From a plasmid, in NCBI RefSeq assembly GCF_055900595.2, contig NZ_JBVWEU010000003.1: a stretch of DNA of 64,000 bases, one strand, 5' to 3'. A program made the translations under genes and the position numbers. Below are positions 865-18,408 of the stretch, one piece after another (the stretch's first letter is position 1; each line of letters begins with the position of its first letter). Under the pieces are notes generated by a model. The model was not told the origin of the DNA. It searched no databases and was given only the letters and a program-made list of their open reading frames with translations.

Positions 865-899
865 GAGTGACCTCATCTGAATAATCCGGCCTGCGCCGG

Positions 900-2502: not shown

Positions 2503-2631
2503 TCTCTCCGGTTCCCCCTGAGCGGGGGAATTTCACTGGCACTTATTGCGGGGAACAAAACCATCGGACGGGGGAAACATCTGTATTTCTGTGTGTCCTG
2601 GTGTAATACGGTGGATTTGTGTGTGTCTGGA

Positions 2632-2668
2632 AGCTTAATGCTAATGTATGCGTACATTAGCATTAAGC
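2632..2668. promoter_or_regulatory. Long near-perfect palindrome (GCTTAATGCTAATGTA…TACATTAGCATTAAGC)
   Basis: 16-bp arms read directly from the sequence in the noncoding gap between the TA pair and the finO-like gene. Confidence 0.4.
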
Positions 2669-2844
2669 CTGTTTTCCCGTCGTGTCGGGGTCAGTCTGGG
2701 AAACGTACAATATTGTGTGTTTCTTGCTGTAGGGGAACGAGGTAACGTTTACACACTCGCGAGTGAGCGGATGAAATAATATCTCATTCAGTACTCTTTT
2801 TATCTGCTGCCGTTTTTTCCGGTGATTTTTTTTCTGCATACAGA

Positions 2845-2878
2845 AAAAAAGCCTGCCCGGAGGGCAGGCATGAAAGAC
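2845..2878 (-). terminator. Rho-independent terminator-like hairpin on minus strand
   Basis: GCCTGCCC-TCCG-GGCAGGC stem followed by a T-run when read on the minus strand. Confidence 0.35.
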
Positions 2879-3220
2879 AATCGCACAGTCAGTGTTGAAA
2901 TTAATGATGTCACGCATTTTCCCGGCGGATACACAAACCATCCCGGCCAGTACCGGCGGCATCGTAATCAACGTCTGCGGGCTGTGCAATGCTCTTTTTG
3001 CTGATTTAAGATAAAGTTATTACAGCCCCTGACGGAGACGAAAACAACGGCAGACAATATACGGGAAATATAATCAGACCGTTTTAATATTATTTCCAGG
3101 AACGCGACGAAGTCAGGCAGATTTATATATTTCTGGCCGGGCTGACATTCCGGATTGGTGTATATAATAATACGTTTGTGATATATTTATAATCGGTTTT
3201 ATTATGTTGCCGGGGTATTT

Positions 3221-3844
3221 ATGGCCAGGAATCAGGAAAAGAAAACGCCCGTCATTGTGGTGAAAAAACGTCGCGTTATTTCACCTCCTGTCGTCGATAA
3301 AACAGAGACTGTCATTCCGCCTGTACCGGAAGTGGCGGTACCACCGGCAGCTGCTGATGCGCAGCTGCCAGCCCCCATCCCGGATGCGTCTCCTGCGCCT
3401 GCTGCCGTCGGAAAGAAAAGGAAAGGAAGACCACCACGCAGGCTCCTCAGAGAGCACTGGACACGGGAGTTCACCGACCAGTGCATGGAAAAGGTCAAGG
3501 CAATTTTCCCGCATCTTCGCGCTGAAGGCGGCGGTTTTCTGCCTCTCAGGGTCGGTATCTCCCGCGATATTACTGCCTGGCTGGCTGAGCACCCTGAAGC
3601 CGGACTCACCCGGGATGAATGGGACTGTGCCGTATCCTGTATCACCTCCCGGCGTGTCTATCTGTTGCGTACCGCTGTCACCGGTGCCACCCGCTATGAC
3701 CTCGATGGTAAGCCTGCCGGGCAGGTTTCTGAGGATGAGGCAAAAAATGCTCAGCGCTGGCTGGCCATCCGGGACCGCCGGTGGGAGAAAAAACAGGCCG
3801 CTCTGGCCGGGGCAACAGGCGGGGAGAATACGACCGCAAAATGA
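3221..3844 (+). CDS. FinO/ProQ-like RNA chaperone domain protein (tentative)
   Basis: 207 aa; Pro/Ala-rich N-terminus with basic KKRKGRPPRR patch, then a C-terminal domain that resembles FinO by pattern; family assignment is from memory only. Confidence 0.4.
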   Translation: MARNQEKKTPVIVVKKRRVISPPVVDKTETVIPPVPEVAVPPAAADAQLPAPIPDASPAPAAVGKKRKGRPPRRLLREHWTREFTDQCMEKVKAIFPHLRAEGGGFLPLRVGISRDITAWLAEHPEAGLTRDEWDCAVSCITSRRVYLLRTAVTGATRYDLDGKPAGQVSEDEAKNAQRWLAIRDRRWEKKQAALAGATGGENTTAK

Positions 3845-3947
3845 CTCAGCTCCCGGCCGGGCAAGCCCGTCACTCTCCGACCGCCGAACCGCAGGTTGTC
3901 ATTGACTGGCTGGCCAGAAGCTGGGGCTGGTTGCCCGCGCCATGCTG

Positions 3948-4931
3948 TTACTGTTTACGGTGCTGATTCCCTTCGCCGTAAATTTGACAATCTCCGCGCC
4001 CGGGGTGCGGAGATTGTCGCTCGTTATATGGTTTGAATGCCTGTTTTTGCTGTTTCATTTCATTTATCAAAAAATCAGTAAATGCTCTTACTTTGGGGGA
4101 CAATTGCCTGTTAGTCGGCCACATTATCATTAAGTCTCCAAAAGGGGCCATGAACTCGGTCAACACGGGATATAATTCACGTGATTCTAATGCATCATGA
4201 GCAACATATATGGGAAGGTGGGCCAGACCTAACCCATTTACTGCTGCATATAACCCCGCGTATGTGTTATTGAAAATGAAGTTTTGAGGTAGTGTTATAT
4301 TTTTATATGGTGGAATGAATGACCATGGAGCGATCTTTCCATTAGATGGATATTTAAAATGAATACAGCTATGTTCTGATAATTCCGATGGGATTTGTGG
4401 AGCGCCATATCTGTCTAAATAGGAGTAACTACCACATACAACGAAATGTTGCTTCCCTATATATCTGCTTACTAACCTTGAGTCTACGGGATTACCGCTT
4501 CTTATTGCTATATCTATACCTTCTTTTATGATATCCACAACATGGTCTTCAAAGTCAATATCTAAATGGATTTCAGGATATAATAAATTAAACTTTGATA
4601 TTAACGGCATTAATAGTTTATGCCCAAATATATGAGGTGCTGTGATGTGCAAGGTTCCCCTGGGAGTACACATATTTGATGAAATGATTTCTTTTGCACT
4701 ATATAGTTCATCTAATATTAAACAGCATCGTTCATAAAACAAGAAACCATTTTCTGTTAAACTAATACTTCTTGTTGTTCTATGGAAAAGTCTTGTTCCA
4801 AGTTCATCTTCCAGCTTTGATATACTTTTTGCAATAGCGGAGGGAGATAGCCCAAGAACTCTGGCAGCTTGTGCGTAGCTATTATGTTTTACCGCATATA
4901 CAAATGCGGTTATACCTTGGAAACCCTTCAT
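3948..4931 (-). CDS. LysR-family transcriptional regulator
   Basis: N-terminal HTH (YAQAARVLGLSPSAIAKSISKLEDELG…LFHRTTR) plus ~300-aa co-inducer domain; divergent from the adjacent operon; AT-rich codon usage. Confidence 0.85.
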   Translation of the reverse strand: MKGFQGITAFVYAVKHNSYAQAARVLGLSPSAIAKSISKLEDELGTRLFHRTTRSISLTENGFLFYERCCLILDELYSAKEIISSNMCTPRGTLHITAPHIFGHKLLMPLISKFNLLYPEIHLDIDFEDHVVDIIKEGIDIAIRSGNPVDSRLVSRYIGKQHFVVCGSYSYLDRYGAPQIPSELSEHSCIHFKYPSNGKIAPWSFIPPYKNITLPQNFIFNNTYAGLYAAVNGLGLAHLPIYVAHDALESRELYPVLTEFMAPFGDLMIMWPTNRQLSPKVRAFTDFLINEMKQQKQAFKPYNERQSPHPGRGDCQIYGEGNQHRKQ

Positions 4932-5053
4932 GATAACTAATATCTGGATTAGTGAAAAAGAGTCATGATTATAATGACTGAATTTGATATTTACAATGGG
5001 GGGAGGGGTAATAAAATCAAATCGCCAGTAATATGATTTCTCTGTAAATAGTA

Positions 5054-5906
5054 ATGGTAGGTATATTTATGAGTTACATGCCCAAGAAAATTGAAGGGGC
5101 TTCTGTTGATGAGCTTGTGCTAAAAGGGGTTAAGCATATTATTAATAATGGCGAGAGAATATCCTCAAGAGCTGGAGGGGCTATTCAGGATTACGGAGTT
5201 ATATATGTTTTGTCCGATCCCCTAAACAGAGTTCATTCCTTGAGAAACGGAGCTATGAGGTATTTTGCAAGAGAGTTGATTGCCTATTTTTCAGGGAGTC
5301 TAAAGGTTGAGGATGGATTGGCTAAGGCATCAAAGTTTTGGGCATCGCTTGCAGATGAGAACGGGAATATAAACTCAAACTATGGATACTATGTGTTCCA
5401 TGAGAAAATAGATAAATATACAAATCAATATAATTGGGCTAAATGTGTCTTGTTAAAAAACAAAGATACCAGACGAGCCATAATCAATATAAATCAGGTT
5501 CGTCATAAGTCTGACACGAAAGATTTTCCCTGTACTGTAAGTATTCAGTTTTATATTAAAGATAATGAGTTGTACTGCGAAACTAATTCTCGAAGCACAG
5601 ATATTATAACAGGATTGCCATATGATATGGGATTTTTTTTCGTTTGTTCATGAGTTAATGTGGAAAGATCTTATCGAGAATGGATTGGAAGATTTGAAAC
5701 TTGGACCAACTATAATGAAAACAACATTTACTCAGATTTATGATAAAACAATAAATAAAGCATATGAAATTCTGAATAATGAATGTAATGATCTTAATGT
5801 TATAAATATGCCAAGTGTAATATCTGCTCAGGATACTTTAAATGATATAATGTCAGGAAGTTCGAAAACGGATGTTGTTAAGTGGATATATAAATATGCA
5901 GAGTAA
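5054..5906 (+). pseudogene. Thymidylate synthase-family enzyme (ThyA / dNMP C5-hydroxymethylase-like), split by a +1 frameshift in a T8 run near 5633-5640
   Basis: ORFs 5054..5653 and 5622..5906 together align with ThyA: DTRRAI versus DSRR, FPCT versus catalytic PCH, GLPYDMGFFSFVHELMW versus GLPFNIASYALLVHMM. Seven T's would restore a single ~280-aa frame. Confidence 0.7.
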
Positions 5907-6438
5907 AAAGAAAATATTCTTAACATCAAACAATCCAGCTAAAGTAGAAGCTGTCAAAATAGTTTGTTCTAAATTATTTGATGTTTTTTCTATCAAGCAT
6001 GAGGATATAGCGTCAGGTGTTAGTGATACTCCATTTACAGATGATGAGGCTATTTTAGGATGTTATACAAGAATTAATTCATCTGAGCATAATTTAAGTG
6101 AGCATGTGGATTACATTATTGCATTAGAAGGATTGATAGAGAAAAAATCATTTGGACAATTTGTTTATGGATGGGCTGTTATAAAGGAAATGGAAAGTTC
6201 GAGTTTTTTTTATGGATGTAGTGGGAAAGTTTATTTGCCAAATCGTGTTATGCAAAAGATGTCTTCCCAGAAAAGATTGTCTGATGTTGTTCTTGAGTTG
6301 TATCCAGGAACAAGTGCTGATGAGTTAAAGTTGATAGGAACGAATGGTGTATTGACCGGTGGACTATATACGAGAGCGATGGAGTTCGAGACAGCTTTAT
6401 TGTGTGCTTTCGGTTCTATGATGACAAGTAAAGTTTAA
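5896..6438 (+). CDS. YjjX-like non-canonical purine NTP phosphatase (inosine/xanthosine triphosphatase family)
   Basis: Aligns along its length with my recollection of E. coli YjjX (NNPAKVEAV; SGVSDTPF; YGWAVIKE; C-terminal GVLTGGLYTRA). Start taken at the internal ATG (MQSKKK). Confidence 0.6.
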   Translation: MQSKKKIFLTSNNPAKVEAVKIVCSKLFDVFSIKHEDIASGVSDTPFTDDEAILGCYTRINSSEHNLSEHVDYIIALEGLIEKKSFGQFVYGWAVIKEMESSSFFYGCSGKVYLPNRVMQKMSSQKRLSDVVLELYPGTSADELKLIGTNGVLTGGLYTRAMEFETALLCAFGSMMTSKV

Positions 6439-6453
6439 AAAAAAGGTGATATT

Positions 6454-7734
6454 ATGTTATTTAAAAAAGTAAATTTTCTTGATCATCATGATATGAGCTT
6501 TAGAAGAGGTGATATCCGTGTGATGGGTAATATGATCGTACAAATAGATGATGATCTGCAACCTATTGGAGATGAAGAGTTTGTTACATTGGATCATATG
6601 ATTGTTTTACCTGGGATTGTAAATGCACATCTACATCCAAGTAAGGAGATATATGGATGTTTATATGAATCAATGAACATAAATGATGTTCTTAACTCTG
6701 TTCATAAAAACAATAAAATGGAAACATCTGATGTGCAGTTTTTGTCTTCAACTAAAGCGTTAGTAAATGCATTAAAGAAAGGTGTTACAACATTAGGGTT
6801 ATTTACTAGTAGAGTTGATAGCGATTATGTTGCTGCTAAATGTGTTGGTGGGCGTTATGTTATAAATTTTTGTCAGAGTAATTACTGGTGCGCTGATGGT
6901 GTTCCTCCTGAAAGAATAGAGATCAGAGATATTATTAAAAACTACGATTTATATAGTAAACAAAAAAATGATTCTAAGATAATATTCTCAGCTGCAACAG
7001 CTTCTGAGTTATCTGCTGATGACCAATTGATCAAAAAATGTCATGATTATGCAGCAAGTAACAATTCAAGGTTTTTTATCCACATACATGAAGGTGCTGA
7101 ACAGGTTGCAAAACATAAATTACATTTTAATGAAAGTGGCATTAGTCGATTGTTTAGACTAGGGGTTTTAGATGAATATACAACTCTAATCCATGCAACT
7201 CATCTCTTGGATAGTGATCTTGATATTATTACCAGATCTCACTGTAATATAATTCATTGCCCTGTGAGTAATAGCTTTGTTACAGCGGGAACAATGCCAT
7301 TAAGAAAAATGATATCAGTAAATAGATTTGTTGGATTGGGTACTGATGCAGCTATGGTTAATCCAGTTAATGACATTACATTTGATGCACTTTTTGCTCT
7401 ATATCATCATGGTGACAGAAATTCTAACTTGAAAGTATCTGCCAGTGAAATAATAAATATGATCACATTTAAAGGAGCTGGAGCATTAGGATTGGATAAT
7501 ATAGGACTAATTAAAGCTGGTTATAAAGCAGATCTTATTTTTTTTGACTTGGAGAATATTGATGGCGATTATATAAATACGCCCGTATCTATATTGAAAA
7601 TGTTGCATAAAGAAACACCTATACATGTAATGGTTGATGGCAAGTTTATTATATACGAACATATGTTCGTGAATTGTAATTTTAATGATGAGCTTGAAAA
7701 ATACGCTTCTTTAAAAAAAGAGATTGTGAAATGA
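6454..7734 (+). CDS. Metal-dependent amidohydrolase-superfamily deaminase (cytosine/guanine/MTA-deaminase-like)
   Basis: 426 aa with N-terminal HxH metal motif (VNAHLHP) and downstream HATHL, HCPVSN, GLGTDA motifs typical of nucleobase or nucleoside deaminases. Confidence 0.75.
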   Translation: MLFKKVNFLDHHDMSFRRGDIRVMGNMIVQIDDDLQPIGDEEFVTLDHMIVLPGIVNAHLHPSKEIYGCLYESMNINDVLNSVHKNNKMETSDVQFLSSTKALVNALKKGVTTLGLFTSRVDSDYVAAKCVGGRYVINFCQSNYWCADGVPPERIEIRDIIKNYDLYSKQKNDSKIIFSAATASELSADDQLIKKCHDYAASNNSRFFIHIHEGAEQVAKHKLHFNESGISRLFRLGVLDEYTTLIHATHLLDSDLDIITRSHCNIIHCPVSNSFVTAGTMPLRKMISVNRFVGLGTDAAMVNPVNDITFDALFALYHHGDRNSNLKVSASEIINMITFKGAGALGLDNIGLIKAGYKADLIFFDLENIDGDYINTPVSILKMLHKETPIHVMVDGKFIIYEHMFVNCNFNDELEKYASLKKEIVK

Positions 7735-8339
7735 AAAATGTTGCATTTATTTTTTCAGGGAGAGGTAGTCTCGTTACAACTGTTTTGGATGCTATTAGAG
7801 ATAGTAAGACACAATCCAGATTATCCTTAATGATTACAAATAATGTCGAGTTTGATGAGAAATTTACCCCTAAGGGTGTTGATTTGGTTGTTTTAGACCG
7901 GAATGAGTATGTGAAAAGGAATGATTTTGAGAAAAAGATAATATTTGAGTTGAAAAAAAGAAATATTAGCTTAGTTATTCTTGGAGGTTTTAAATTCATT
8001 TTTTCAGAAAAATATGTTGATCTTTTTGGAAACATTACAATAAATACACATCCATCATTACTTCCTGCTTTTCCTGGAGATAAGGCGCAACAAAGGGCTT
8101 TAGCTAAAGGAGTTATATATACTGGTGCAACAATTCATTTTATAAATGAGCATGTTGATGATGGACCTATTATTGACCAAGAGGTTGTCAGGGTTGAAGA
8201 GGGTATGACGGAGTATGAGCTAAAGGAACAAATTATTGAAGTTGAAAAGATAATGATTTACAGATCTGTTAAGGCATTTCTCGACGGAAGATTATATTTA
8301 AAAAACAATCAGGTTATATATGGGGTTGATGATGTATAA
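7731..8339 (+). CDS. PurN-like formyltransferase (GAR transformylase fold)
   Basis: 202 aa; N-terminal FIFSGRGS, NTHPSLLPAFPG (Asn/His catalytic pair) and DDGPIIDQ (catalytic Asp) match the PurN family; ATGA overlap with the upstream gene. Confidence 0.8.
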   Translation: MKNVAFIFSGRGSLVTTVLDAIRDSKTQSRLSLMITNNVEFDEKFTPKGVDLVVLDRNEYVKRNDFEKKIIFELKKRNISLVILGGFKFIFSEKYVDLFGNITINTHPSLLPAFPGDKAQQRALAKGVIYTGATIHFINEHVDDGPIIDQEVVRVEEGMTEYELKEQIIEVEKIMIYRSVKAFLDGRLYLKNNQVIYGVDDV

Positions 8340-9519
8340 GATCAAAAATGATATACTTGCAGCTAGTTGTGTTGCCAGTATTCTGTTTGTGGCTATTATA
8401 TGTTTAGGATTGTCACTGGCAATATTACCCTTGTTTGTGAATAAAATATTACACTTGTCGCCTTTATTCGTTGGAGGAGTTATCTCTGTTGAGTCGATCT
8501 CTACATTGTTATCAAGAGCATCTTCTGGACGGTATTCAGATAAAAATGGCCCCAAAAAAGGAATGATTGCTGGTCTTACATTGATTGTTTTATCTGGTGT
8601 TCTTGTTTGTATATCTTTTGTTCTTAAAGAGAACGTTATTGCTTCATATATAGTGCTTATTATATCACGTATTATTATGGGGGTTGGTGAGAGTTTGGTT
8701 TTTACATGTAGCGGCACATGGCCTATAGGACTGGTTGGCAGGGAACATGCCGGGAAAATAATGTCATGGGTGGGGATTGCTATGTTCATGGGGCTGGCTT
8801 TAGGAAACTATATTGGTGTCTGGTCATTCTATAAATATAATATTATGGTGTCGGCCATTAGTATTACATTGTTTCCATTATTAGGGTTTATTATTGTCTG
8901 TATTGTCAGAAGTGTTCACTATCATCCCGATGTTATTTCTCCATCAATTGTTTATGGCATAAGAAAAATATGGAGAGCAGGAACAGGTTTTGCTCTCGCA
9001 AATATAGGATATGCATCAATCACCACATTTTTAGTTTTGCTTTTTATCGATAATGACTGGGGGAGATATAGTGCTCTTGGTTTATCTCTTTTTGGTATTG
9101 GGTATGTTACTTCCCGCTTAACAATAGGATGGGCGGCCGATCATGTAGGGTTAAAAACAACAATATTTTCACTTGGTCTTGAAGCTTTAGGATTATTATT
9201 TGTTGGTTTGTCAGTTAATATGTATCTGTCTATGTTTGGGGCTTTCTTAACAGGCTTCGGATTATCAATGGTGTATCCACTGTTGGCATTACCTGCAATT
9301 AAAAACATGCCAGAAGAAAATATTGGATTTGCAATTAGCCTTTATGAATCATGCTTTGATATTGGCATACTCATTTCCGGTTTTTTAGGCGGTCTGATTG
9401 TATCTTGCTTTGGGCTTCAATATATATTTTACTTTTCTTTTATATGTTGTCTGATCGCGATTCCTCTTTCTGTTATGGCATATCAGGTATCATCCACGTT
9501 AAATAAAGAATGCAGATAA
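8320..9519 (+). CDS. MFS transporter (likely efflux)
   Basis: 399 aa, about 12 predicted hydrophobic helices with glycine-rich loops; overlaps the purN-like stop, so probably co-transcribed. Confidence 0.8.
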   Translation: MGLMMYKIKNDILAASCVASILFVAIICLGLSLAILPLFVNKILHLSPLFVGGVISVESISTLLSRASSGRYSDKNGPKKGMIAGLTLIVLSGVLVCISFVLKENVIASYIVLIISRIIMGVGESLVFTCSGTWPIGLVGREHAGKIMSWVGIAMFMGLALGNYIGVWSFYKYNIMVSAISITLFPLLGFIIVCIVRSVHYHPDVISPSIVYGIRKIWRAGTGFALANIGYASITTFLVLLFIDNDWGRYSALGLSLFGIGYVTSRLTIGWAADHVGLKTTIFSLGLEALGLLFVGLSVNMYLSMFGAFLTGFGLSMVYPLLALPAIKNMPEENIGFAISLYESCFDIGILISGFLGGLIVSCFGLQYIFYFSFICCLIAIPLSVMAYQVSSTLNKECR

Positions 9520-9529
9520 ATCGGACAAC

Positions 9530-9793
9530 TTGTATGCTGCCAGGATGTTGAAATACTTCTGCTGTGACTGCCAGCACGGTACATTGTACGAAGGGACTCG
9601 GGGGGATACTGTGATGTTGCATGAGGATTTTCAGGAGCTTGAGCAGCCGGGGCCGGACAATGTGCAGGAATTTGAAGAGAAACGGCGGGATGAACTCAAC
9701 CTGCTCTATGTGGCGGCCACGCGGGCCCGGAAGACGCTTGTTCTGAACAGTGTACTTCGCCAGATTCTGGCAAACAGTCGCTTCACCGGATGA
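9530..9793 (+). pseudogene. C-terminal remnant of a UvrD/Rep-like helicase
   Basis: 87-aa ORF ends with the helicase C-terminal motif LNLLYVAATRARKTLVL; no N-terminal ATPase domain upstream; composition jumps back to GC-rich exactly here. Confidence 0.45.
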
Positions 9794-10054
9794 TTGCCTG
9801 GCCGTGACGAAAACAGCATGATACCGGTACTGGAACCGTGTTTTCAGGGAGTACCGGATATGTGGTTTTTTTCGACAGTTCTGTTTCTGCTCATTGTTAT
9901 CTGTTGCGTGGCTGGCGTTGTGAATGCACTGGCGGTGCAGCGTGAATTACATGCACGCAGGGAGCAGGAATATCATGCCCGGATACGCGCGGAGACAGGT
10001 GAGCGTATCCGGCGGGAATGGTATGAGCAGTGCCGACAGAAAAGAACACAATAA
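9794..10054 (+). CDS. Hypothetical small membrane protein
   Basis: One hydrophobic helix (FFSTVLFLLIVICCVAGVV) followed by a charged tail; no recognisable family. Confidence 0.3.
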   Translation: MPGRDENSMIPVLEPCFQGVPDMWFFSTVLFLLIVICCVAGVVNALAVQRELHARREQEYHARIRAETGERIRREWYEQCRQKRTQ

Positions 10055-10349
10055 ATAAAAACAGCGGTTACGAAGCAAAATGCATCGTGAGAGTACATTC
10101 AGTTATTTTTTGTTATTTTGTTTTTTATAAAACAAAATAACAGGCATGGTTAATGCGAGGTGTTTTATAGAAAAATGCCCTCAGAGGAGATAGTGAGGGC
10201 ATAAAGTAAAAACCGATTCGATGGATAGTCTGTTAATTATAATTTTAAATGGAAATTTTAAAACATGCAGAAACAGGATACAAACCGAAAGATAAAAAAT
10301 GTGATACAGAAAACAGAATATCACTATATCACGGTCAGCATGATGGCTG

Positions 10350-10561
10350 TCATTCTGCTGATGAGCAGTTGCTTAATACAGGTCTGTCATTCCCTTCTAC
10401 CAGATCGGCTTTTTTCCCTTTTGTGTACAGTTTATATGAGTAGTTTTTGTTGATGGCTTCGTAATTCGCTCCGGAGGCCATTTTCATAAGCTGCATGGGT
10501 ATCATCTCATCCATCTGATTTATCACTGCATAGGAGTTTCCGGCAGTGGTGTTGATATAGA
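10350..10561 (-). pseudogene. mliC-like lysozyme inhibitor gene, C-terminal part (displaced by the IS66 insertion)
   Basis: Minus-strand translation from the target duplication gives …YINTTAGNSYAVINQMDEMIPMQLMKMASGANYEAINKNYSYKLYTKGKKADLVEGNDRPVLSNCSSAE*, with the MliC-type SGA.Y motif; in frame with the N-terminal part at 13261-13395. Confidence 0.6.
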
Positions 10562-10591
10562 GTAAGCGGCTCGTCAGAACCGTATTGATAT

Positions 10592-12163
10592 TTACTGAGA
10601 GCTCAGATCAACTTTCCAGGGCAACAGATCGCGTACCCGGTTTGCCGACCAGTCCTGGATATGTTCAATGACGTAACGCAGCCACTTTTCTGGCTCCACA
10701 TTGTTCAGACGGCATGTGCCGATCAGCGAGTACAACACCGCCGCATGTTCACCACCGCTGTCGGAACCCGCGAACATCCAGTTTTTCCGGCCTACGGCCA
10801 CTCCCCGTAAGGCGTTCTCTGCGATGTTGTTGTCGATTTCCACCCAGCCATTACTGCAGTACACGTTCAGTGCATCCCACTGTTTCAGCAGGTATGCGAA
10901 CGCTTTTGCCGTATCTGAGTGACGCGACAGTGTTTTCATCTGAGTCTGTATCCAGTCGTACAGTGACTGCATCAGTGGCGCAGCTCTGGCTTTTCTTGCC
11001 GCCAGACGCTGTTCTGCTGAACATCCCCGGACCTCTGCCTCGATTGCATACAGTTCACCGATACGCTGCAGGGCTTCCGTGGTGATATCGGTAGGCGCTC
11101 TTGCATGCACATCGTGGATTTTTCTCCGGGCATGGGCCATACACGCGGCTTCCGTTATTCTGCCGGATTCGTATAACGCCCGGTAACCACCGTAAGCATC
11201 GGCCTGAAGCACACCGCTGTAACCGGCCAGGTGATTCTGTGGATGGATACCTTTCCGGTCCGGGCTGTACGCGAACCAGACCGCCGGGGGCATCTGTGAA
11301 CCGGTGTTACGGTCATCACGGACGTAAACCCACAGCCGGGCAGTTCTTGTTTTACCACTGCCCGGCTCCTGGACCGGAACGGGGATATCATCCGCATGGA
11401 CTTTACCGGGCATCAGCACATACTGGCGCAGCACGTCATACAGCGGCTCCAGCAGTTCAGCAACGGCACTGGTCCAGCGCCCCAGCGTGGCGCGGCTCAG
11501 TTCCACGCCCTGACGACGGTATATTTCTGACTGGCGGTATAACGGCAGATGGTCTGCATACTTCCCGGTGACGATATGAGCCAGAAGCCCCGCTCCGGCA
11601 TAACTGCGTGCAATGGGTTTTGAAGGTACTGGTGCCTGCACGATATGGTCGCACCGGCAACAGGCCAGTTTCGGACGTTGTGTTTCGATAACCTTAAAGG
11701 CGCTGCTGATAAGCTCCAGTTGCTCTGACACATCACATCCCAGAGAACTGAGTTCGCCACCACAAGCCGGGCAGCATTCCTCTTCCGGCCGGATAACCCG
11801 GGATTCACGGGGAAGTGCAGCCGGTAACGGTTTACGGGCTGAAGACTGGCGCAGGGAAGATGGCAGTGCCGGGTCATATTGCTCACCCAGTGTTTCCGCC
11901 ATTTCTTCCTGAAGTGCGCTGATTCGCTCCTGTGCTTCCTGTATCTGTCGTTCGGTTTTTGCGCGAAGTTTTTCTGAGCTTTTACCGAACTGCATGCGCT
12001 GCAGTTTTGCAACCAGCGCCTTCAGCCGGTTGATTTCAGAAGCATAAGCCGCCACCCGCTGTGAGAGCAGGCAATTGTATTCGGCCATCTGGCGGATGGT
12101 GTCCTGTTGCGCCTGCAACAGTGCCCGCAGGCGGGCGTTCTCATGAGCAAGTGAGGTGTCCAT
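10592..12163 (-). CDS. tnpC: IS66-family transposase TnpC
   Basis: 523 aa with an N-terminal coiled coil, a Cys cluster (CPACGG…CCRCDH) and a DDE-type core characteristic of IS66 TnpC. Confidence 0.9.
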
Positions 12164-12182
12164 ATCCTCACTTTACAACGGG

Positions 12183-12530
12183 TTATATGCGGATTCCAGC
12201 GCGTTCCGTTCGTTTTGGATGTTTCCAGTCGATGCCCTCAAGAAGCATGGATAACTGGGCCGGAGTAAGGTGCACCTTGCCGTCACGGGTGACCGGCCAG
12301 ACGAAGCGGCCCCGCTCCAGGCGTTTGGTGAAGAGGCACAGTCCGTCGCTGTCAGCCCACAACACTTTTATCTGGTCACCCCGGCGTCCGCGGAAGATGA
12401 ACAGGTGTCCGGAGAACGGGTCATTCTTCAGGACGTTCTGAACTTTTGAGGCCAGGCCGTTAAAGCCATTTCGCATGTCGGTGATACCGGCAACCAGCCA
12501 GATACGCGAACCTGCAGGGAGAGATATCAT
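12183..12530 (-). CDS. tnpB: IS66 Orf2 (TnpB)
   Basis: 115 aa with the conserved IS66 Orf2 signature (WLVAGITDMRNGFNGLA…GHLFIFRGRRGDQIKVLWAD). Confidence 0.9.
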   Translation of the reverse strand: MISLPAGSRIWLVAGITDMRNGFNGLASKVQNVLKNDPFSGHLFIFRGRRGDQIKVLWADSDGLCLFTKRLERGRFVWPVTRDGKVHLTPAQLSMLLEGIDWKHPKRTERAGIRI

Positions 12531-13207
12531 CAGTGGCTGCTCCCTTTCATTTCGCGGATAAGTGTCTGTAATAAGGCCGGTGTCAGTTCACCTTTCAGCC
12601 TGAGAGTTCCGGCCGGCAGAACCAGCTCACAGCACAGACTGTCGGACGGTGTATTTATCTGCTCTGGTTCCTGTGCCGGAGCCGGGATTTTATTATCCGG
12701 CTCCGGCGTTAACGTCACGGGAAGCAGTGCAGGCATATTTTTTCCGGAAGGCAGCAGGCCACCTTTCCGGTATTGATGGCGCCAGTTGAAGAGCAGGTTA
12801 TCGTTGATTCCGTTTTCACGGGCGATCTGCGCCACACAGGCTCCGGGCTGCAGTGACTGCTCCACTAAGGCGATTTTAAACTCATAAGGAAAATTAGGCC
12901 GCCGGGGACGTTTTTTTACCACCGGGACTTCGGACATAACGGTGTTTTCAGTAAGTACGACAGGTACTGTGGAGGCACTCCCGTAAAGACGGGCATCAAG
13001 TTCCCGCTCCGACATACCTGCGGGAAGAGGCCATGAAAGGCCAGCTTTGCGGAAGCGCACGAACATACCACAAACTGTTGATTTTGGTACGCCCAGGCGA
13101 CGTCCGGCCACAATCCGTGGTAAATGTTCTTCAAAGTGAAGACGTAAAGCTTCGGTGATCCAGGTCCGGTATTCCATACGATAGTGTCCATTAAAAATGA
13201 TGGACAT
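12530..13207 (-). CDS. tnpA: IS66 Orf1 (TnpA-like) with N-terminal HTH
   Basis: 225 aa; sits first in the three-gene IS66 arrangement and overlaps Orf2 by one base. Confidence 0.7.
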   Translation of the reverse strand: MSIIFNGHYRMEYRTWITEALRLHFEEHLPRIVAGRRLGVPKSTVCGMFVRFRKAGLSWPLPAGMSERELDARLYGSASTVPVVLTENTVMSEVPVVKKRPRRPNFPYEFKIALVEQSLQPGACVAQIARENGINDNLLFNWRHQYRKGGLLPSGKNMPALLPVTLTPEPDNKIPAPAQEPEQINTPSDSLCCELVLPAGTLRLKGELTPALLQTLIREMKGSSH

Positions 13208-13395
13208 TATTTTTGTGGAGCCGGAGGAAACAGACCAGACGGTTCAGATGAGGCGCTTACGATATAGACAACCTCCATTGTCTTGTTTCCATCACAGACA
13301 TAGGCTTTTTTTGAGATTTCTTGTGTGGCAGCGGAGGCTGTCATACAGGAGCAGGCGAGAATGAGTGCAAGGACGGCTGAAGAATATTTTTTCAT
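13207..13395 (-). pseudogene. mliC-like lysozyme inhibitor lipoprotein gene, N-terminal part interrupted by IS66
   Basis: Signal peptide with lipobox (LILACSCMTA) then YVCDGNKTMEVVYI; the original frame leaves at the target duplication and the ORF runs on into IS66 sequence. Confidence 0.6.
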
Positions 13396-13848
13396 AACAA
13401 CTCCTTCTGTAGGTTAAAAAGAGAGGTGCTTTGCCGGAGTTATATTAATAATTCATTCATCAGAGAAAACTTTTTTTTGTTACGGCAATAATAATGAGAC
13501 AATTCCAGGTAAGCCCGGTGCCGTTCTACGGTTGCACCGGGAGGGCTGGAACTCAGTGCGGAGATTTTTTACCATCCTGGTGATATAAATGATCATGTGC
13601 TGTTTTGCGGTCCCTGTATATGCCCATTAGACTGGCCCCCTGAATCTCCAGACAACCAGTATCACTTAAATAAGTGATAGTCTTAATACTAGTTTTTAGA
13701 CTAGTCATTGGAGAATGTAATGAACGCATCCCAACTATTTGAGTATGAAGCCGGGGTTGGCAGGAAAAGTGTGGAGCCTCGCAGATTTCCGGCATCATAG
13801 TGCCCAATACGGGATGCATAAAGCTCCCTCAGACTGGAGACTCCACAA

Positions 13849-14436
13849 ATGAAATATACACCGGTTGGCGTTGATATCGCAAAACATGTCATTCAGGTTC
13901 ACTTCATCAATGAGCACACAGGGGAAGTGGTGGATAAGCAGGTTCGTCGTCAGGATTTTCTGGCGTATTTCAGTAACCGCGAACCCTGCCTGATTGGCAT
14001 GGAAGCTTGTGGAGGCTCCCTGCACTGGGCGCGTGAATTAACAAAGCAGGGACACAAAGTCCGATTGTTGCAGGCTCGCTTCGTTAAAGCATTCGTCATG
14101 GGCAATAAGAATGACGTGATGGATGCGCGAGCTATCTGGATGGCGGTACAGCAGCCAGGCAAAGAAATCGCCGTCAAAACAGAAGAACAACAGTCAATAC
14201 TGGTTCTGCACCGTTCCCGCAGACAACTGGTGAAGTTCCGGACCGCGCAAATTAATGCCCTGCACGGGAGGTTACTGGAGTTTGGTGAAACCATTTCTTT
14301 TTCAGTCTGTATCGCAGAACTGCGTAATAATCTGAAGGAGAACTCTTCCTGGCTGGTTGCTCTCTGTGATTTCATTTTTGCACGTTTCAGGCAGTGCTGT
14401 ATTCGTCTCTGGATACAGATCCGATCATCTTCCTGA
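13849..14436 (+). pseudogene. IS110-family transposase, truncated or frameshifted
   Basis: The first ~150 aa (MKYTPVGVDIAKHVIQVHF…GMEACGGSLHWAREL…) match the IS110-family DEDD N-terminal domain; the ORF stops at 195 aa with a non-conserved tail. Confidence 0.55.
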
Positions 14437-14551
14437 AGGTAGTTCAGCAGCAATTCCTGCCAGCGTGCAGCGGCTCTGCGCCATAATCCCCGCTGTTCGA
14501 GCTCTTCAGCTTTTTTATCAGTAATCATATTCACCTCTGCTCTGGTCGGTC

Positions 14552-15352
14552 ATGCTTTCTTCCCGGTATGTTATAGTTATTAAGATACTTTTGTCCCTGT
14601 TCTGTTCCGGAGTGAACATGATTTTTGTCTGTTCTGTTGTACTGGCTGGCAGGGCATTCACCCTGCAGTTTGCCGGGAAAATGCTGTCCCTTTCTGCAGG
14701 AGATGTGCTTCTGATTGATGATGCTGATCGTGAGGATTTTCAGCCTCATGCTGAGCATATCACTGAGGTGAGGCTGGATGAAAATATCATCCGCAGATAT
14801 CTGGAGAGTTGTGGCGGCAACCGGGAGGCCGACAACACGGTTTCTTCTGGTTTCATCAGAGTGGCCTTTGCTCATCCTGCGTTGTTGCGTGACGTTATGC
14901 ATCATCTGAATTCGGGAGGATTTGTTCATCCCGGATTTTCCGAGCAGATGTTTTTTTCCTGCATTGCTGTCTTTGCATCAAAAAAAGGCTTTCTTCCTTT
15001 GTTGCTGGGCGGAATGCTTTCTGTGGCCGGGAGAGTGAGGCATATCATCTGTACTGACCTTTCACGCCAGTGGAAGCTGCGGGATGTCAGCAGTCGTTTG
15101 TATATGAGTGAAAGTCAGCTGAAAAAGAAACTGAAGGAAGAAGGATGTTCGTTCACCGGAGTGCTTCTGGATGTGAGAATGGGCTATGCACGCCGTCTGT
15201 TACAGGCCCGTCTGCCGGTCAACAGGGTGGCCGCGCAGTGTGGTTATGTAAGCACATCTTATTTTATCTGCGTGTTCAGGGAATGTTTTGGCGTCACGCC
15301 TCACAGGATGCTGGCGCTTCAGGAGCACGGGCAGCATAAAAGTGAATGCTGA
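14552..15352 (+). CDS. AraC-family transcriptional regulator
   Basis: C-terminal double HTH (RDVSSRLYMSESQLKKKLKEEG…VAAQCGYVSTSYFICVFRECFGVTP); the true start may be the internal MIFVC. Confidence 0.7.
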   Translation: MLSSRYVIVIKILLSLFCSGVNMIFVCSVVLAGRAFTLQFAGKMLSLSAGDVLLIDDADREDFQPHAEHITEVRLDENIIRRYLESCGGNREADNTVSSGFIRVAFAHPALLRDVMHHLNSGGFVHPGFSEQMFFSCIAVFASKKGFLPLLLGGMLSVAGRVRHIICTDLSRQWKLRDVSSRLYMSESQLKKKLKEEGCSFTGVLLDVRMGYARRLLQARLPVNRVAAQCGYVSTSYFICVFRECFGVTPHRMLALQEHGQHKSEC

Positions 15353-15535
15353 GTTTGAATTATTCTGAAGAACGGCGGGCATTTTATGGAAACGGCACAT
15401 TTCCGTGTCTCTGTGGTCATTCCCGATTGCTGTTGACGCATCGCCACTCACCGGAAATGTGCCGGAATATTTTAATCGTTCTTCACCGTCTGTGAAGGTC
15501 CTGTGCTTACATTGCTGAGCGGAAAATGGCTGGTA

Positions 15536-15573
15536 GGGGTTTGAGGTCCAGTGGAACGAAAACGTACGCTAAG
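15536..15573. mobile_element. Tn3-family 38-bp terminal inverted repeat (GGGGTTTGAGGTCCAGTGGAACGAAAACGTACGCTAAG)
   Basis: Matches the Tn3/Tn21-type IR consensus (GGGG…GGAACGAAAAC…ACGCTAAG) read directly from the sequence; the element interior lies to the right. Confidence 0.6.
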
Positions 15574-15662
15574 AGAGTAATTCGTTGTTTTTAAATAGCT
15601 TAATACGTTGAATCCGGGAGAGTTTAGCCTTCCCGGATTAGATGCGACGTAATCCCATTACC

Positions 15663-15880
15663 TCACATTCAGCGATAAACCGAACGTGCAATGCGGGTAT
15701 ATGTATGCCTGACTCCGCGAATGGCAATACTATAAGCTAGGATGTTCTCCGGTAGTGCCATCCCCATATAGCCGGTATCACCAATATGGTGCAGATCGGC
15801 CCCTGCCATTTTGCTCATTAACGCTATTTGACGAATGGTGCTTATATCAGCACCTTCCTGGCGGTTCCGGCGTAGAACCC
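15663..15880 (-). pseudogene. Probable 3' remnant of a Tn3-family tnpA
   Basis: A minus-strand frame ending ~90 bp inside the IR, oriented as tnpA is relative to its IR; assignment rests on context, not on recognised sequence; truncated before the par iterons. Confidence 0.3.
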
Positions 15881-15934
15881 CCTATTAATATTTGTTTTGT
15901 TTTAGGTTCTATTCAACATAGGTCATCCTAAAAT

Positions 15935-16015
15935 ATATTGAAGATAACAAGATAACAAGATAACAAGATAACAAGATAACAAGATAACAAGGTGTTATCT
16001 TGTTATCTCAAGGTG
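15935..16015. repeat. Iteron array: tandem 8-bp AAGATAAC units (about 6-7 copies) plus inverted GGTGTTATCTTGTTATC copies, downstream of the par operon
   Basis: Direct read of the sequence; a related array lies upstream at 17065-17120. Confidence 0.6.
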
Positions 16016-16318
16016 TTATCTTTGTTTTACTTCTGCTATCAATCGTGATACCTCTGTTTTTGATAGTGTTTTAAGTGCTTCTACCGCCGCCCTGACAACA
16101 TCAGAACGATTCACTCTGCCTTTACCTGAAACCATCTCAGCCGTTATAAGGGCATCAATGTCTTTTAGGTTTTCTTCAAAAAAAGAAATACTCACTGGTT
16201 TTGCTTTGCTTACAACCGATGATTTATCTGATGACTTTTTGGTATTATCAAGGCCAGCCGTGCCACCGTTAATAAATGCTGCCTCGTCACGAGGTGAAGT
16301 GTTTGCTCTATTTCTCAC
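16016..16318 (-). CDS. Small partition/centromere-binding protein (ParG/ParB-like, tentative)
   Basis: 100 aa, overlaps the parA stop; basic N-terminus; non-ATG (GTG) start per ORF track. Confidence 0.45.
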   Translation of the reverse strand: MRNRANTSPRDEAAFINGGTAGLDNTKKSSDKSSVVSKAKPVSISFFEENLKDIDALITAEMVSGKGRVNRSDVVRAAVEALKTLSKTEVSRLIAEVKQR

Positions 16319-16941
16319 AGAATAACCTCTTTCACTAACGCTTCGATTTCTTGCTGGGCTTTATCATTTTGCGTTTCAAAAATTGTCATTGATTCGGCCC
16401 AAGCATCTCGATGTGCTTTACGATCACATACCCGGGAGTTTGCCAGATGCATTTCAGGGTAATCCTTAAGTACTTCAGCTGCCTCATTGGCTTCATTAAC
16501 AAACATATTTGTGGGCGTCATGTTTAAAACGAGATATCCCCGAACATCCCCATTAAAATCTTTTGCTGCTGTAAAAACGGAGCATGTATGAGGCACAACA
16601 TCCAGGTCCATCTGAGATGGGCGCAAAGGAGAAATGAATACATCTGCGGCCATCAATCCACTACGCATTTCTGCGCTATCACGGCCAGCACAGTCTGCAA
16701 TAACAAAATCATAGGATTTTTCGTGTTCCTTTAACATGGCTTTGATGTTACCTGTCGCGCCTGTAACCGGAATATGAGGGAGATCTTCAGGGCGATTGTT
16801 GTACCAGGTTAATACTGATTTCTGGTCATCTGCGTCGACAATAATCACTCTATTGCCTAGTGACATCAGATACGCAGCTATAGATACCGCCAGTGTACTT
16901 TTACCTACCCCACCCTTTTGACTACCTAATACTATTATCAT
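16315..16941 (-). CDS. parA: ParA-family partition ATPase (type Ib)
   Basis: Deviant Walker A motif KGGVGKST at the N-terminus; 208 aa. Confidence 0.9.
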   Translation of the reverse strand: MIIVLGSQKGGVGKSTLAVSIAAYLMSLGNRVIIVDADDQKSVLTWYNNRPEDLPHIPVTGATGNIKAMLKEHEKSYDFVIADCAGRDSAEMRSGLMAADVFISPLRPSQMDLDVVPHTCSVFTAAKDFNGDVRGYLVLNMTPTNMFVNEANEAAEVLKDYPEMHLANSRVCDRKAHRDAWAESMTIFETQNDKAQQEIEALVKEVIL

Positions 16942-16949
16942 TATAGCCT

Positions 16950-17120
16950 CATATTAAGTTGTTAAGTTAACAACTTAATATTGCCATCTGAACGCGAATC
17001 ATGCAATTATTTTTGTTATATTAACAACTTAACAAGTTATTAAGTATTTGATTTATAGATTAATTAATATAACAAGATAACAAGACAACAAGATAACAAG
17101 ATAACAAGATAACAATATTA
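16950..17120. promoter_or_regulatory. par promoter/operator region with palindromes (AAGTTGTTAAGTTAACAACTTAA) and upstream AAGATAAC iterons
   Basis: Read from sequence immediately upstream of the parA start. Confidence 0.5.
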
Positions 17121-17136
17121 TGGGTGGATTACATAT

Positions 17137-18408
17137 TCATAACTGGGCTACTGGCAAATCTGTCCATCTGGTGGTATACGCAGGAGAAAGCATTTCCCGT
17201 TTCATTTGCCACTCAGGGGCGGTTCCTCGCCCCGCAAACCACACTTTCCCTTTTCCCGACTGGTTCAGTTCATCGAGTGTTTTCATTAACTTTTCACTGT
17301 TTTTACGGGGCTGGATTTCATCAAATAATCCCGGCTGCGCTATACCCGATGGTGTGAAATCAGCCAGCATGACTCCTGCCTTCATATAGCGGTACCCTTC
17401 ACGCCAGACATGGTTTAAGGCCCTGCATGCGGCGGCAATAATGTCCCGGCTGTCCTGTGTGGGCAATGAAAGCTTTTCCACAGCGGCATTGCTGTAACAG
17501 GGTTCTTTTACTGCAAAGGGGGATGTCCGTACAAATGTCGTCACCTGCCGGCAATACTGACGTTCCCCACGTAGTTTCTCTGCGGCCCGCTCTGCATACT
17601 GAACAACAGCCTGGTGCATGGCATCTTTGTCTGTGATTCGTTCACCAAAACTGCGACTACAGACAATCTGCTGTTTTGCCGGTGGTGCTTCTTCCAGGGA
17701 TATGCAGGACTCGCCGTTGAGTTCGCGTACCGTACGCTCAAGAATGACGCTGAAGTTTTTCCGGATGAATGCCGTGTTAGCCTGCGCCAGCTGCAGTGCT
17801 GTGTTAATACCCAGCGCATTCAGCTTTTCCGTCAGTCTGCGTCCTACTCCCCAGACCTCACCAACTGGCTGCAGCCCCAGTAGCTTCAAGATCCGATTAC
17901 GGTTTTCTGCCGTCAGCGCGACCACACCGGAAAACTGTGGCCATTGCTTTGTTGCCCACTGTGCACTTTTAGCCAGCGTTTTTGTAGGCGCAATGCCCAC
18001 CCCCATGGTGAGTCCTGTCCAGCTCTTTACCTGTTCCCTGAGCTGATGACCAAAAACCTCCGGAGAGATGCAATGATTTATCCCCCGCAAATCAATGAAC
18101 ATTTCATCAATTGAGTAGGGCTCAACTGCGGGAGAAAGCGACTCCAGAACAGCCATAACCCGTTGGCTCATGCTGTGGTACAGCGCATAATTGCTGGAAA
18201 ATACATGTATTTTCTTCTCCAGGCGCATCTGTCTCACCTGAAACCAGGGCTGCCCCATTCTGATGCCAAGGGCTTTTGCCTCCGGGCTGCGCGCGATCAC
18301 ACAGCCATCGTTATTGCTGAGTACGATGACCGGTTCGTTGCGAAGGTCCGGGCGGAAAACTTTTTCACATGAGGCGTAGAAACTGTTGATATCAGCCAGT
18401 GCAAACAT
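17137..18408 (-). CDS. impB: Y-family error-prone DNA polymerase subunit (UmuC/MucB/ImpB)
   Basis: 423 aa starting MFALADINSFYASCE…, the conserved Y-family polymerase N-terminus. Confidence 0.9.
   Translation of the reverse strand: MFALADINSFYASCEKVFRPDLRNEPVIVLSNNDGCVIARSPEAKALGIRMGQPWFQVRQMRLEKKIHVFSSNYALYHSMSQRVMAVLESLSPAVEPYSIDEMFIDLRGINHCISPEVFGHQLREQVKSWTGLTMGVGIAPTKTLAKSAQWATKQWPQFSGVVALTAENRNRILKLLGLQPVGEVWGVGRRLTEKLNALGINTALQLAQANTAFIRKNFSVILERTVRELNGESCISLEEAPPAKQQIVCSRSFGERITDKDAMHQAVVQYAERAAEKLRGERQYCRQVTTFVRTSPFAVKEPCYSNAAVEKLSLPTQDSRDIIAAACRALNHVWREGYRYMKAGVMLADFTPSGIAQPGLFDEIQPRKNSEKLMKTLDELNQSGKGKVWFAGRGTAPEWQMKREMLSPAYTTRWTDLPVAQL

Follow-up and report, generated by a model that had tools for sequence, protein, structure and literature searches.

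What kind of element left a single 38-bp terminal repeat beside the partition (par) operon of this plasmid, and what did it once carry? The plasmid is an E. coli IncK2/Z-type conjugative plasmid of the I-complex, of which we analysed a 64-kb stretch, referred to here as the window. A sequence-only reading of the locus had proposed successive insertions and deletions, and this proposal held when the history was rebuilt by tracing each junction in sister sequences. The zone that separates the replication/ProQ side from the par operon is very likely an ordinary patchwork of inactive scars of broken mobile elements, and no activity is expected from 13628-14294 or 15536-15860. The sequence relationships and junctions described below are direct observations. 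Three of the features in Table 1, namely the 87-bp IS2 left end, the disrupted PerC gene and the intact IS66-family element, had not been listed in the earlier reading.

Table 1 Features of the region, with coordinates in the window.
Feature	Coordinates	Strand	Basis or remark
Intact IS66-family IS, 2,699 bp, ends GTAAGCG...CGCTTAC	10562-13260	-	Comparison with pLS45-2, ORF pattern
IS2 left end, nt 1-87 only	13628-13714	+	BLAST of complete IS2 from L003, 98.9%
IS110-family element, 5' fragment	13715-14294	+	134 bp of left non-coding end plus transposase codons 1-149 of 339
PerC-family regulator gene, N-terminal 78 codons	14295-14528	-	Disrupted by the IS2/IS110 composite
AraC-family (YdeO-like) transcriptional regulator, intact	14618-15352	+	735-bp CDS annotated in near-identical plasmids
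TGGTA, 5 bases	15531-15535	.	Between AraC-module end (15530, L003 homology) and outer end of the repeat
Solo 38-bp Tn3-family terminal inverted repeat	15536-15573	+	GGGGTTTGAGGTCCAGTGGAACGAAAACGTACGCTAAG
95-bp 3' flank of the DUF7916 gene, two hairpins	15574-15668	-	Contiguous with DUF7916 in L038, L037 and L009
DUF7916 gene, 3' remnant, 63 codons plus stop	15669-15860	-	Pfam DUF7916; identity to the L038 protein
3.5-kb deletion junction, 2-bp overlap	15860-15861	.	L038 7853 = 15861; L038 11365 = 15860
8-bp iterons, AAGATAAC x 6.4 plus inverted pair	15941-16008	.	Downstream of the partition operon
ParA / small-protein partition operon	16016-16941	-	
Second iteron array	17069-17115		

The 38-bp sequence had been taken for a Tn3-family repeat, and formal comparison with Tn3-family repeats supported this identification. 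It is identical at 36 of 38 bases to the terminal repeats of L006, L007 and L008, the reference repeats in L006 and L007 being those that overlap the 3' end of annotated Tn3-family transposase genes in Tn1000-like elements. Compared with the repeat of the Tn3-like element that carries blaTEM-1 in L014, it shows 81% identity over 43 bp. One match to a Tn3-type repeat was observed in the window against 0.00 expected from 100 shuffles. With its GGGG outer end at 15536 and its TAAG inner end at 15573, the interior of the transposon lies to the right. The earlier statement that the window holds no partner repeat proved correct, the next-best 38-mer in a whole-window scan reaching only 23/38, and a cognate partner was also absent from L038 and L037. 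By tblastn, with two Tn3-family proteins as the TnpA queries, no tnpA- or tnpR-like coding sequence was found in the 64-kb window. The five bases TGGTA just outside the repeat may be one copy of the 5-bp target duplication of the transposon, a candidate suggested by their position.

The frame inside the repeat had been read as a short tnpA tail extending to 15880, and neither its identity nor its extent was confirmed. The frame encodes the C-terminus of a DUF7916 protein (PF25509, E 7.9e-33, 114.2 bits for a cut-off of 27, covering model positions 234-296 of 296), and the two TnpA queries gave no tblastn match. Its 63 residues are 100% identical by tblastn to residues 247-309 of a 309-aa protein encoded on L038; a protein word-index search yielded nothing longer than fragments of 46-120 aa. 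The remnant stops at 15860, the base at which the backbone begins in L013 and L014. A candidate alignment that stretched the DUF7916 homology to 15880 through a frameshift was rejected, since 15860-15882 is par-side backbone common to these two plasmids. The remnant shares its last 63 residues with the DUF7916 family, whose members are annotated as 'PEP phosphonomutase' or 'haloacid dehalogenase-like hydrolase', but only 20% of the gene is left in the window. At least 19 Enterobacterales-type genomes have a full-length DUF7916 gene (~300 aa) on the chromosome, in some cases beside GntR and PTS genes. The closest sampled chromosomal gene, in Raoultella planticola, has only 83% nucleotide identity, so the donor is unsampled.

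The 95-bp flank between the repeat and the remnant has a fold energy of -26.1 kcal/mol (z = -3.3); its hairpins, which have no T-run, lie on the strand that transcription from par would read. A consensus terminator scan found no site in 15536-15860, picking up only the palindrome in the iterons and one site where the AraC gene ends. A first scan of the genome collection with the hairpin motif gave 0 matches. Resemblance to the final codons of a Tn1000-like tnpA (NNELLS-stop vs NNELTS-stop) is confined to at most ~20 bp on the inner side of the repeat. We also considered whether the 84 bp on this side could be a diverged stretch of tnpA and rejected this candidate, because only these ~20 bp align with tnpA tails and the remainder matches, collinearly, the 3' flank of DUF7916 in L038 and L009.

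What the element carried can be read from undeleted relatives. Sister plasmids and two metagenome contigs (L037, L038) contain, in order, the repeat, the 95-bp flank, a full DUF7916 gene, a PTS EIICB gene, a GntR gene and a 5'-truncated Tn3-like resolvase gene. The whole 3.9 kb is present on five complete E. coli plasmids, p135-2 among them, at ≥99.8% identity, and the carriers are mostly chicken-associated E. coli; the deleted form occurs on dozens of plasmids. Pfam recognised full DUF7916, PTS_EIIC plus EIIB and GntR plus UTRA in the undeleted copy, the DUF7916 protein of L038 scoring 402.6 bits over model positions 1-296 of 296. The resolvase remnant in L038 is a C-terminal fragment of ~85 aa, of which 79 aligned residues correspond to residues 106-184 of Tn3 resolvase (PDB 5cy1, E 2.3e-36). 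It has 77% nucleotide identity to the tnpR genes of L006 and L014, and its 3' end is directed at the cargo and the repeat. The deletion in the window plasmid took the rest of the DUF7916 gene, the PTS EIICB and GntR genes, the resolvase-gene remnant and 73 bp of backbone, and tblastn with the cassette queries found no PTS or GntR homologues in the 64-kb window.

Because these relatives place the repeat first, then the cargo genes and then a tnpR fragment aimed at the repeat, it was probably the cargo side of a Tn3/Tn1000-like transposon, not the tnpA side, that ended in this repeat. The lost cargo was a GntR / PTS EIICB / DUF7916 cassette with a putative role in sugar utilisation. The earlier suggestion that the cargo, possibly resistance genes, had been lost or lay elsewhere was thus right about its loss from the plasmid and wrong about resistance, since the cargo is metabolic in the relatives. 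The element resembles the Tn3 subgroup (Tn3/Tn2, Tn1000, also called gamma-delta, and the unnamed Tn1000-like elements in L006 and L007) in its GGGG...TAAG 38-bp repeat, in the relatives' resolvase remnant, which is closest to Tn3 resolvase, and in the position of the relatives' cargo between tnpR and the right-hand repeat, as with bla in Tn3. It differs from the subgroup in its single surviving repeat, in the lack of tnpA and of a complete tnpR, and apparently of res, in any copy found, in carrying this cassette instead of a resistance gene, and in the tnpA-tail-like ~20 bp at its apparent cargo-side end. Searches of the plasmid, E. coli-genome, genome-contig and metagenome collections did not turn up the proposed transposon in intact form, complete with tnpA and a left repeat, so the full element is reconstructed from its right-hand 3.8 kb only.

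The left part of the region holds the scars of an IS2/IS110 composite. BLAST with the complete IS2 of L003 found no IS2 sequence in the window other than the 87-bp left end, which is preceded at 13623-13627 by CCCAT, the left-hand copy of the 5-bp target duplication of IS2. In L003 the target is uninterrupted (...ATGCCCATTTCTT...), the PerC gene running from 14291 straight into 13628 and then leftwards. The ORF at 13849-14436 opens as an IS110-family transposase, and the truncation recognised in the earlier reading is real. A full 339-aa copy matched by tblastn with residues 1-149 at 13849-14295 (98.7% identity), and the frame hits Pfam DEDD_Tnp_IS110 (PF01548, positions 1-151 of 155, E 2.4e-12) and NCBIfam transpos_IS110 (NF033542, positions 2-156 of 343, E 4.9e-43, 147.6 bits against a cut-off of 140). 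The C-terminal Transposase_20 domain and the right end are absent, element sequence stopping at 14294. The cut falls at CCAT (14291-14294), a tetranucleotide that also occurs in the IS2 target duplication. Full IS110 copies are present in L015 (99.3% over window 13624-14294) and in L046, where it lies within IS2, at nt 87, with IS2 continuing beyond it. Like other members of the IS110 family (NF033542, 'IS110 family RNA-guided transposase'; full copy WP_040080126.1), for which site-specific insertion is known, the fragment has the DEDD domain and a left non-coding end and is nested at a fixed site in another IS, IS2 nt 87. Unlike them, it has had its C-terminal 190 residues and right end deleted, so it should be immobile. 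Neither an IS110 guide RNA nor any other RNA was recognised when 13000-17300 was compared with Rfam at E <= 1.

The PerC remnant, still recognised by Pfam (PerC, E 1.5e-12, positions 1-57 of 90), and the AraC gene form a PerC-AraC module of which the AraC gene is the right half. The AraC protein has the C-terminal double helix-turn-helix (HTH_18, PF12833, E 1.4e-16; HTH_AraC, PF00165, E 3.8e-14) and is closest to YdeO, at 203 bits against a family cut-off of 348. The gene is probably functional. It had been counted among the degraded mobile elements; the gene is real and intact, and it is not a degraded mobile element. The module to which it belongs also occurs on unrelated plasmids. One of these is the IncHI1B-type pYLMB10a (L003), whose homology halts at window 15530. 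PerC/AraC regulator pairs are known from E. coli virulence plasmids, an example being the per locus of the EPEC EAF plasmid. The module is like them in having adjacent PerC-family and AraC-family genes on a plasmid, and unlike them in its divergent arrangement, its YdeO-closest AraC protein and the disruption of PerC in the window plasmid.

On the far left, pLS45-2 (L001) is collinear with the window except for the IS66 block, with an 8-bp overlap at the join. The IS66-family element is flanked by the 8-bp target duplication GATATAGA at 10554-10561 and 13261-13268 and splits a c-type lysozyme inhibitor gene. It shows the IS66 pattern of three ORFs (225, 115 and 523 aa), with an HTH_Tnp_1 match in the first.

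We hold with high confidence that a history of five steps best explains the locus; the order of the events, the original tnpA and the original left repeat are reconstructed from sequence comparison. First, a Tn3/Tn1000-like transposon would have landed between the PerC-AraC module and par, bringing a left repeat, tnpA, res, tnpR, the GntR / PTS EIICB / DUF7916 cassette as its cargo and a right repeat. An early deletion would then have stripped the transposon of its left repeat, of tnpA and res and of the 5' portion of tnpR, giving the form found in p135-2, the four other complete plasmids and L038. In a third step, a further 3.5 kb would have been deleted, joining DUF7916 codon 246 to the par-side backbone at a 2-bp overlap and leaving the 325-bp remnant 15536-15860 with the repeat, the 95-bp flank and 63 codons. 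Independently, IS2 with its nested IS110-family element would have entered the PerC gene with a 5-bp duplication, and a later deletion of ~2.1 kb between two CCAT tetranucleotides would have left 87 bp of IS2 and 580 bp of IS110. The most recent event would be the IS66-family insertion 0.37 kb upstream, with its 8-bp duplication.

Some observations sit uneasily with this history. The ~20 bp resembling a tnpA 3' end beside the repeat are unexpected at a cargo-side end. In addition, the nif-region contig L009 carries a diverged cargo block (85-92% identical) without the repeat and without tnpR, and this block stops exactly at what would be the inner edge of the repeat. Hundreds of Klebsiella plasmids also carry the repeat and the adjoining 84 bp as a 122-bp unit whose inner boundary is constant. 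The L009 block and the Klebsiella unit lie beyond what the simple model explains.

There is a small chance that the 122-bp unit (15536-15657) is a miniature non-autonomous Tn3-derived element, mobilised by a transposase in trans, that landed independently beside DUF7916 and in Klebsiella virulence-type plasmids. The unit is 99.2% identical, has two constant boundaries and lies in wholly different flanks in hundreds of IncFIB/IncHI1B Klebsiella plasmids, and it is also present in 5 of 8 matching metagenome contigs. However, its inner end has no second repeat (~12/38 by eye, none by scan), and neither of the two contexts shows a target duplication. L009, which lacks the repeat, has a collinear counterpart of the 84 bp in its DUF7916 3' flank, and this better fits the gene's own terminator region; the outer end of the repeat points away from DUF7916, so the unit was not inserted 'next to' the gene. 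A TIME-like miniature element was set aside as an identification, having one repeat only and no duplication, and is kept as a low-probability rival.

It is very unlikely that the solo repeat or the hairpins have been retained because they are useful, the former for immunity against a cognate Tn1000-like transposon, the latter as a terminator of par read-through. A single terminal repeat on a target plasmid suffices for Tn3 transposition immunity, and by analogy the solo repeat might act likewise; the two flank hairpins stand on the par-transcribed strand, and the remnant is 99.7-100% conserved in dozens of plasmids despite the loss of the cargo. This conservation is nevertheless explained by recent common descent, because the flanking backbone is equally identical. 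Moreover, the remnant is missing altogether from many plasmids of the IncK2/Z and other I-complex types, the hairpins have no terminator-like site, and other Tn3-family insertions lie nearby in L014 and L037, though immunity would be element-specific. The GntR / PTS EIICB / DUF7916 block behaves like a discrete cassette, present within the transposon remnant and, lacking repeat and resolvase, in L009. For the cassette end that meets the repeat edge to the base, we regard as highly improbable an undescribed site-directed gain or exchange of cargo by Tn3-family ends, or solo repeats kept for immunity. Barely credible is the original view that the repeat is a tnpA-proximal Tn3 end beside a tnpA 3' end, with its cargo (resistance?) lost or elsewhere on the replicon: the repeat is genuine and the ~20 bp do resemble the last 6-7 tnpA codons of L006 and L007, with the stop codon inside the repeat, but the ORF assignment is already refuted by the DUF7916 match, both TnpA queries failed, and the undeleted relatives show a cargo-side order with metabolic cargo.

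Read as the cargo-side remnant of a Tn3/Tn1000-like transposon, the locus is ordinary, and its importance beyond good annotation is limited. RefSeq already annotates the pseudogenes of the region, and on pLS45-2 its calls agree with the remnants described here: the DUF7916 remnant is a pseudogene 'missing N-terminus', the IS110 stretch an 'IS110 family transposase, incomplete, missing C-terminus', and the PerC gene a pseudogene. The papers examined on IncK2 and I-complex plasmids contain no description of the Tn3 remnant. Our analysis corrects a mislabel, the supposed tnpA tail being the remnant of a cargo gene, and identifies the lost cargo as a putative sugar-uptake cassette. Candidate markers of IncK2/Z lineages are the junction left by the 3.5-kb deletion at 15860/61, the one at CCAT (14291-14294) and the point at 10562 where the IS66-family element inserted. 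The locus also illustrates how, in I-complex plasmids, Tn3-family and IS elements land repeatedly in the replication/ProQ-to-par zone. The content of this zone varies among the plasmids, with yagA in L012 and a colicin region in L013. In L014 a Tn1721-type repeat is inserted at window-equivalent 15929/30, and in L037 a Tn1721-type repeat lies in the PTS gene.

The nearest relatives of this region are near-identical complete E. coli plasmids of PLSDB type IncK2/Z (MOBP, MPF_I). Positions 13261-16050 are 99.6% identical to the sister plasmid pLS45-2, and 14351-16050 are 100% identical in pEGY2 and about 20 other plasmids. Locally the genes run in the order ProQ/FinO, PerC, AraC-family, the remnant under study, small par protein, ParA and a umuDC-like operon, and the AraC regulator recognized by the sequence-only reading is an intact gene, annotated at 14618-15352 in sister plasmids.

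That reading had also proposed a Tn3-family 38-bp terminal repeat, lacking a partner in the window and followed by a short tnpA tail. Formal comparison bore out the repeat: 36 of its 38 bases agree with repeats that, on three unrelated plasmids, overlap the stop codons of genes annotated as Tn3-family transposases, and searching the window with those plasmids' repeat (at most 3 mismatches) returned this one site against 0.00 expected. The lack of a partner was likewise confirmed, as no second copy occurs in the 64 kb, where the next-best match is only 23/38; tblastn of the 64 kb with two Tn3-family TnpA and one TnpR as queries gave no match. The tail had to be reassigned. On the minus strand an open frame of 70 codons runs to 15669; its last 63 residues match the C-terminal part of the Pfam DUF7916 model (positions 234-296 of 296) with E 7.9e-33 and a score of 114 bits, the cut-off being 27. 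Similarity to tnpA 3' ends is limited to ~20 bp directly inside the repeat (NNELLS* versus NNELTS* in the last codons of Tn1000-like relatives); the frame beyond is the end of a DUF7916 cargo gene. The remnant stops on the right at 15860, from where the par-side backbone is common to IncI-gamma/K1 and other I-complex-type (MPF_I) plasmids without the remnant. By tblastn and protein searches, the DUF7916 family also occurs in Enterococcus plasmids and many Enterobacterales, and a scan for its codon pattern, with each species represented by one genome, found such genes, mostly full-length (~300 aa), in 19 genomes, among them Raoultella, Kosakonia, Rahnella, Yersinia, Citrobacter and Enterobacter.

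An apparently ancestral, undeleted form survives today in relatives. Through scanning metagenome contigs with a motif of the 84-bp sequence adjoining the repeat's inner end, we recovered two contigs, L037 and L038, which share the left context of the window (AraC module, TGGTA, repeat) and continue into an uninterrupted DUF7916 gene. L038 has the backbone of the window's plasmid, and its segment 7854-11364 is absent from the window; at the window junction 15860/15861 the ends overlap by 2 bp. The resolvase piece in this segment aligns to residues 106-184 of Tn3 resolvase (PDB 5cy1, E 2.3e-36) and also to gamma-delta resolvase, shows 77% nucleotide identity to tnpR of two plasmids (L006 and L014), and stops at L038 11292, where I-complex backbone starts. 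Since its 3' end faces the cargo and the repeat, the same geometry as in Tn3 (tnpR, cargo, right-hand repeat), the surviving repeat is best read as the cargo-side end of the transposon, the tnpA side of which would have disappeared through an earlier deletion. The plasmid, E. coli-genome, genome-contig and metagenome collections yielded no copy that has tnpA or a second repeat. The whole 3.9 kb, at identity of at least 99.8%, is present on five complete plasmids of E. coli (a source is recorded for four of them, in each case chickens or chicken meat), and RefSeq annotates it as nagE-like PTS IIBC, DUF7916, GntR and a 'helix-turn-helix' pseudogene that is truncated. Dozens of plasmids share the window's deleted form, and the E. 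coli genome matches were all on plasmids (97/97).

Coordinates of features in the window and in related sequences
Feature	Position	Remarks
Tn3-family terminal repeat, 38 bp	15536-15573	36/38 match to known Tn3-family repeats
Rest of DUF7916	within L038 7854-11364	309-aa protein, full model coverage
PTS EIIC+EIIB protein	within L038 7854-11364	465 aa
GntR/UTRA regulator	within L038 7854-11364	divergent transcription, 249 aa
Serine resolvase fragment	within L038 7854-11364	C-terminal ~85 codons
IS2 nucleotides 1-87	13628-13714	first of three pieces in the 13627/14291 join
IS110-family left end, then first 149 transposase codons	after 13714	second and third pieces in the 13627/14291 join
IS110-family element loci	window 13628-14294; L046 3000-4985; L047 3005-4400; L015 3000-4420	
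IS66-family element, 2,699 bp	10562-13260	extra relative to pLS45-2; 8-bp duplication GATATAGA
10.4-kb island	3935-14350	in window and pLS45-2; absent from pEGY2 and L038

Between nifM and nifF on a metagenome contig (L009, the same as L042) the cargo block recurs in diverged form, 85-92% identical and with an internal deletion that fuses GntR to DUF7916. The limits of this copy are exactly the would-be start of the repeat on one side and the GntR stop on the other, and neither the repeat nor tnpR is present. Hundreds of Klebsiella plasmids of IncFIB/IncHI1B type carry a 122-bp unit (repeat plus 84 bp), 99.2% identical and with other flanks, and no partner repeat lies within 5 kb of it. Both cases leave the reading of the window unchanged; the simple transposon model accounts for neither. 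The degraded GntR...DUF7916 block (L009 3469-4018) is placed between a rotamase-domain and a flavodoxin gene, beside an Ogt-like gene fragment, on a contig that also has nifW and nifZ. The Klebsiella records are of virulence-plasmid type, with the unit (5001-5122 in L004/L005; also in L035, L036 and L039-L041) flanked by an aminotransferase gene on one side and hypothetical genes on the other.

The truncated IS110-family transposase was correctly recognized. The ORF 13849-14436 starts as this protein (Pfam PF01548 1-151 of 155; NCBIfam NF033542 2-156 of 343), with residues 1-149 only of a 339-aa full-length relative at 13849-14295. In pYLMB10a, which has the lysozyme-inhibitor/PerC/AraC module, window position 13627 abuts 14291. 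In the window the IS110 sequence ends at CCAT (14291-14294), which also forms the final four bases of CCCAT, the target duplication expected of IS2. A microhomology deletion therefore took out about 2.1 kb, comprising IS2 nucleotides 88-1331 and what remained of the IS110 element, and re-established the target sequence on its right side. PerC is still interrupted after codon 78. The IS110-family element is whole in L046, nested at IS2 position 87 with IS2 continuing after it, the IS2:87/IS110 junction occurs in >50 complete E. coli genomes, and in L047 the element lies inside an IS66 tnpC gene. This repeated nesting at IS2 nucleotide 87, and once in tnpC, suggests guided targeting of other insertion sequences by the element. 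Its 339-aa transposase is WP_040080126.1, and the IS2 site is just upstream of the orfA start.

The zone is a recurrent landing site of independent Tn3-family insertions in sister plasmids. L014 has a Tn1721-type repeat at the equivalent of window 15929/30 (from L014 4071), 12 bp upstream of the par iterons, which begin at 15941, and another such repeat lies within the PTS gene of L037 (3304-3341). Other I-complex plasmids hold yagA (L012) or the colicin Ia region (L013) in the equivalent zone. Next to the ProQ side, L038 also has (at 63-3850) an entire 3.8-kb tnpR-tnpA element bounded by repeats of its own. Direct repeats of 10 bp, GGCTGGTTGC, flank the 10.4-kb island (at 3925-3934 and 14351-14360), whose genes (LysR, thymidylate synthase, inosine/xanthosine triphosphatase, amidohydrolase, formyltransferase, MFS transporter) look like a nucleotide or antimetabolite-related set. 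The island and the cassette occur in all four combinations of presence and absence, with identical junctions; these plasmids have therefore recombined. The IS66-family element splits the c-type lysozyme inhibitor gene. Its first ORF (12530-13207, minus) is listed with 225 aa, longer than the usual IS66 TnpA, and since the HTH_Tnp_1 match is confined to residues 102-159, translation probably begins at an internal start.

Since neither 13628-14294 nor 15536-15860 has a complete transposase gene or a second end, no activity should be expected from them. Folding of the 95-bp flank between the repeat and the DUF7916 remnant gives two hairpins (z = -3.3); the flank lacks a T-run, and a consensus scan detected no terminator-like site there. 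In view of established Tn3 biology, the solo repeat might possibly give transposition immunity, or the hairpins might end par transcripts; the conservation is accounted for by recent common descent. The IS110, PerC and DUF7916 pieces are already marked as pseudogenes in pLS45-2 by the RefSeq pipeline. The original observation was largely right, its central detail was wrong, and the object is ordinary.

The 100-aa ParA partner protein has no Pfam match. Two arrays of the same 8-bp iteron (GATAACAA-type) bracket the ParA/small-protein operon, at 15941-16008 (6.4 copies, followed by an inverted iteron pair) and 17069-17115 (5.9 copies).
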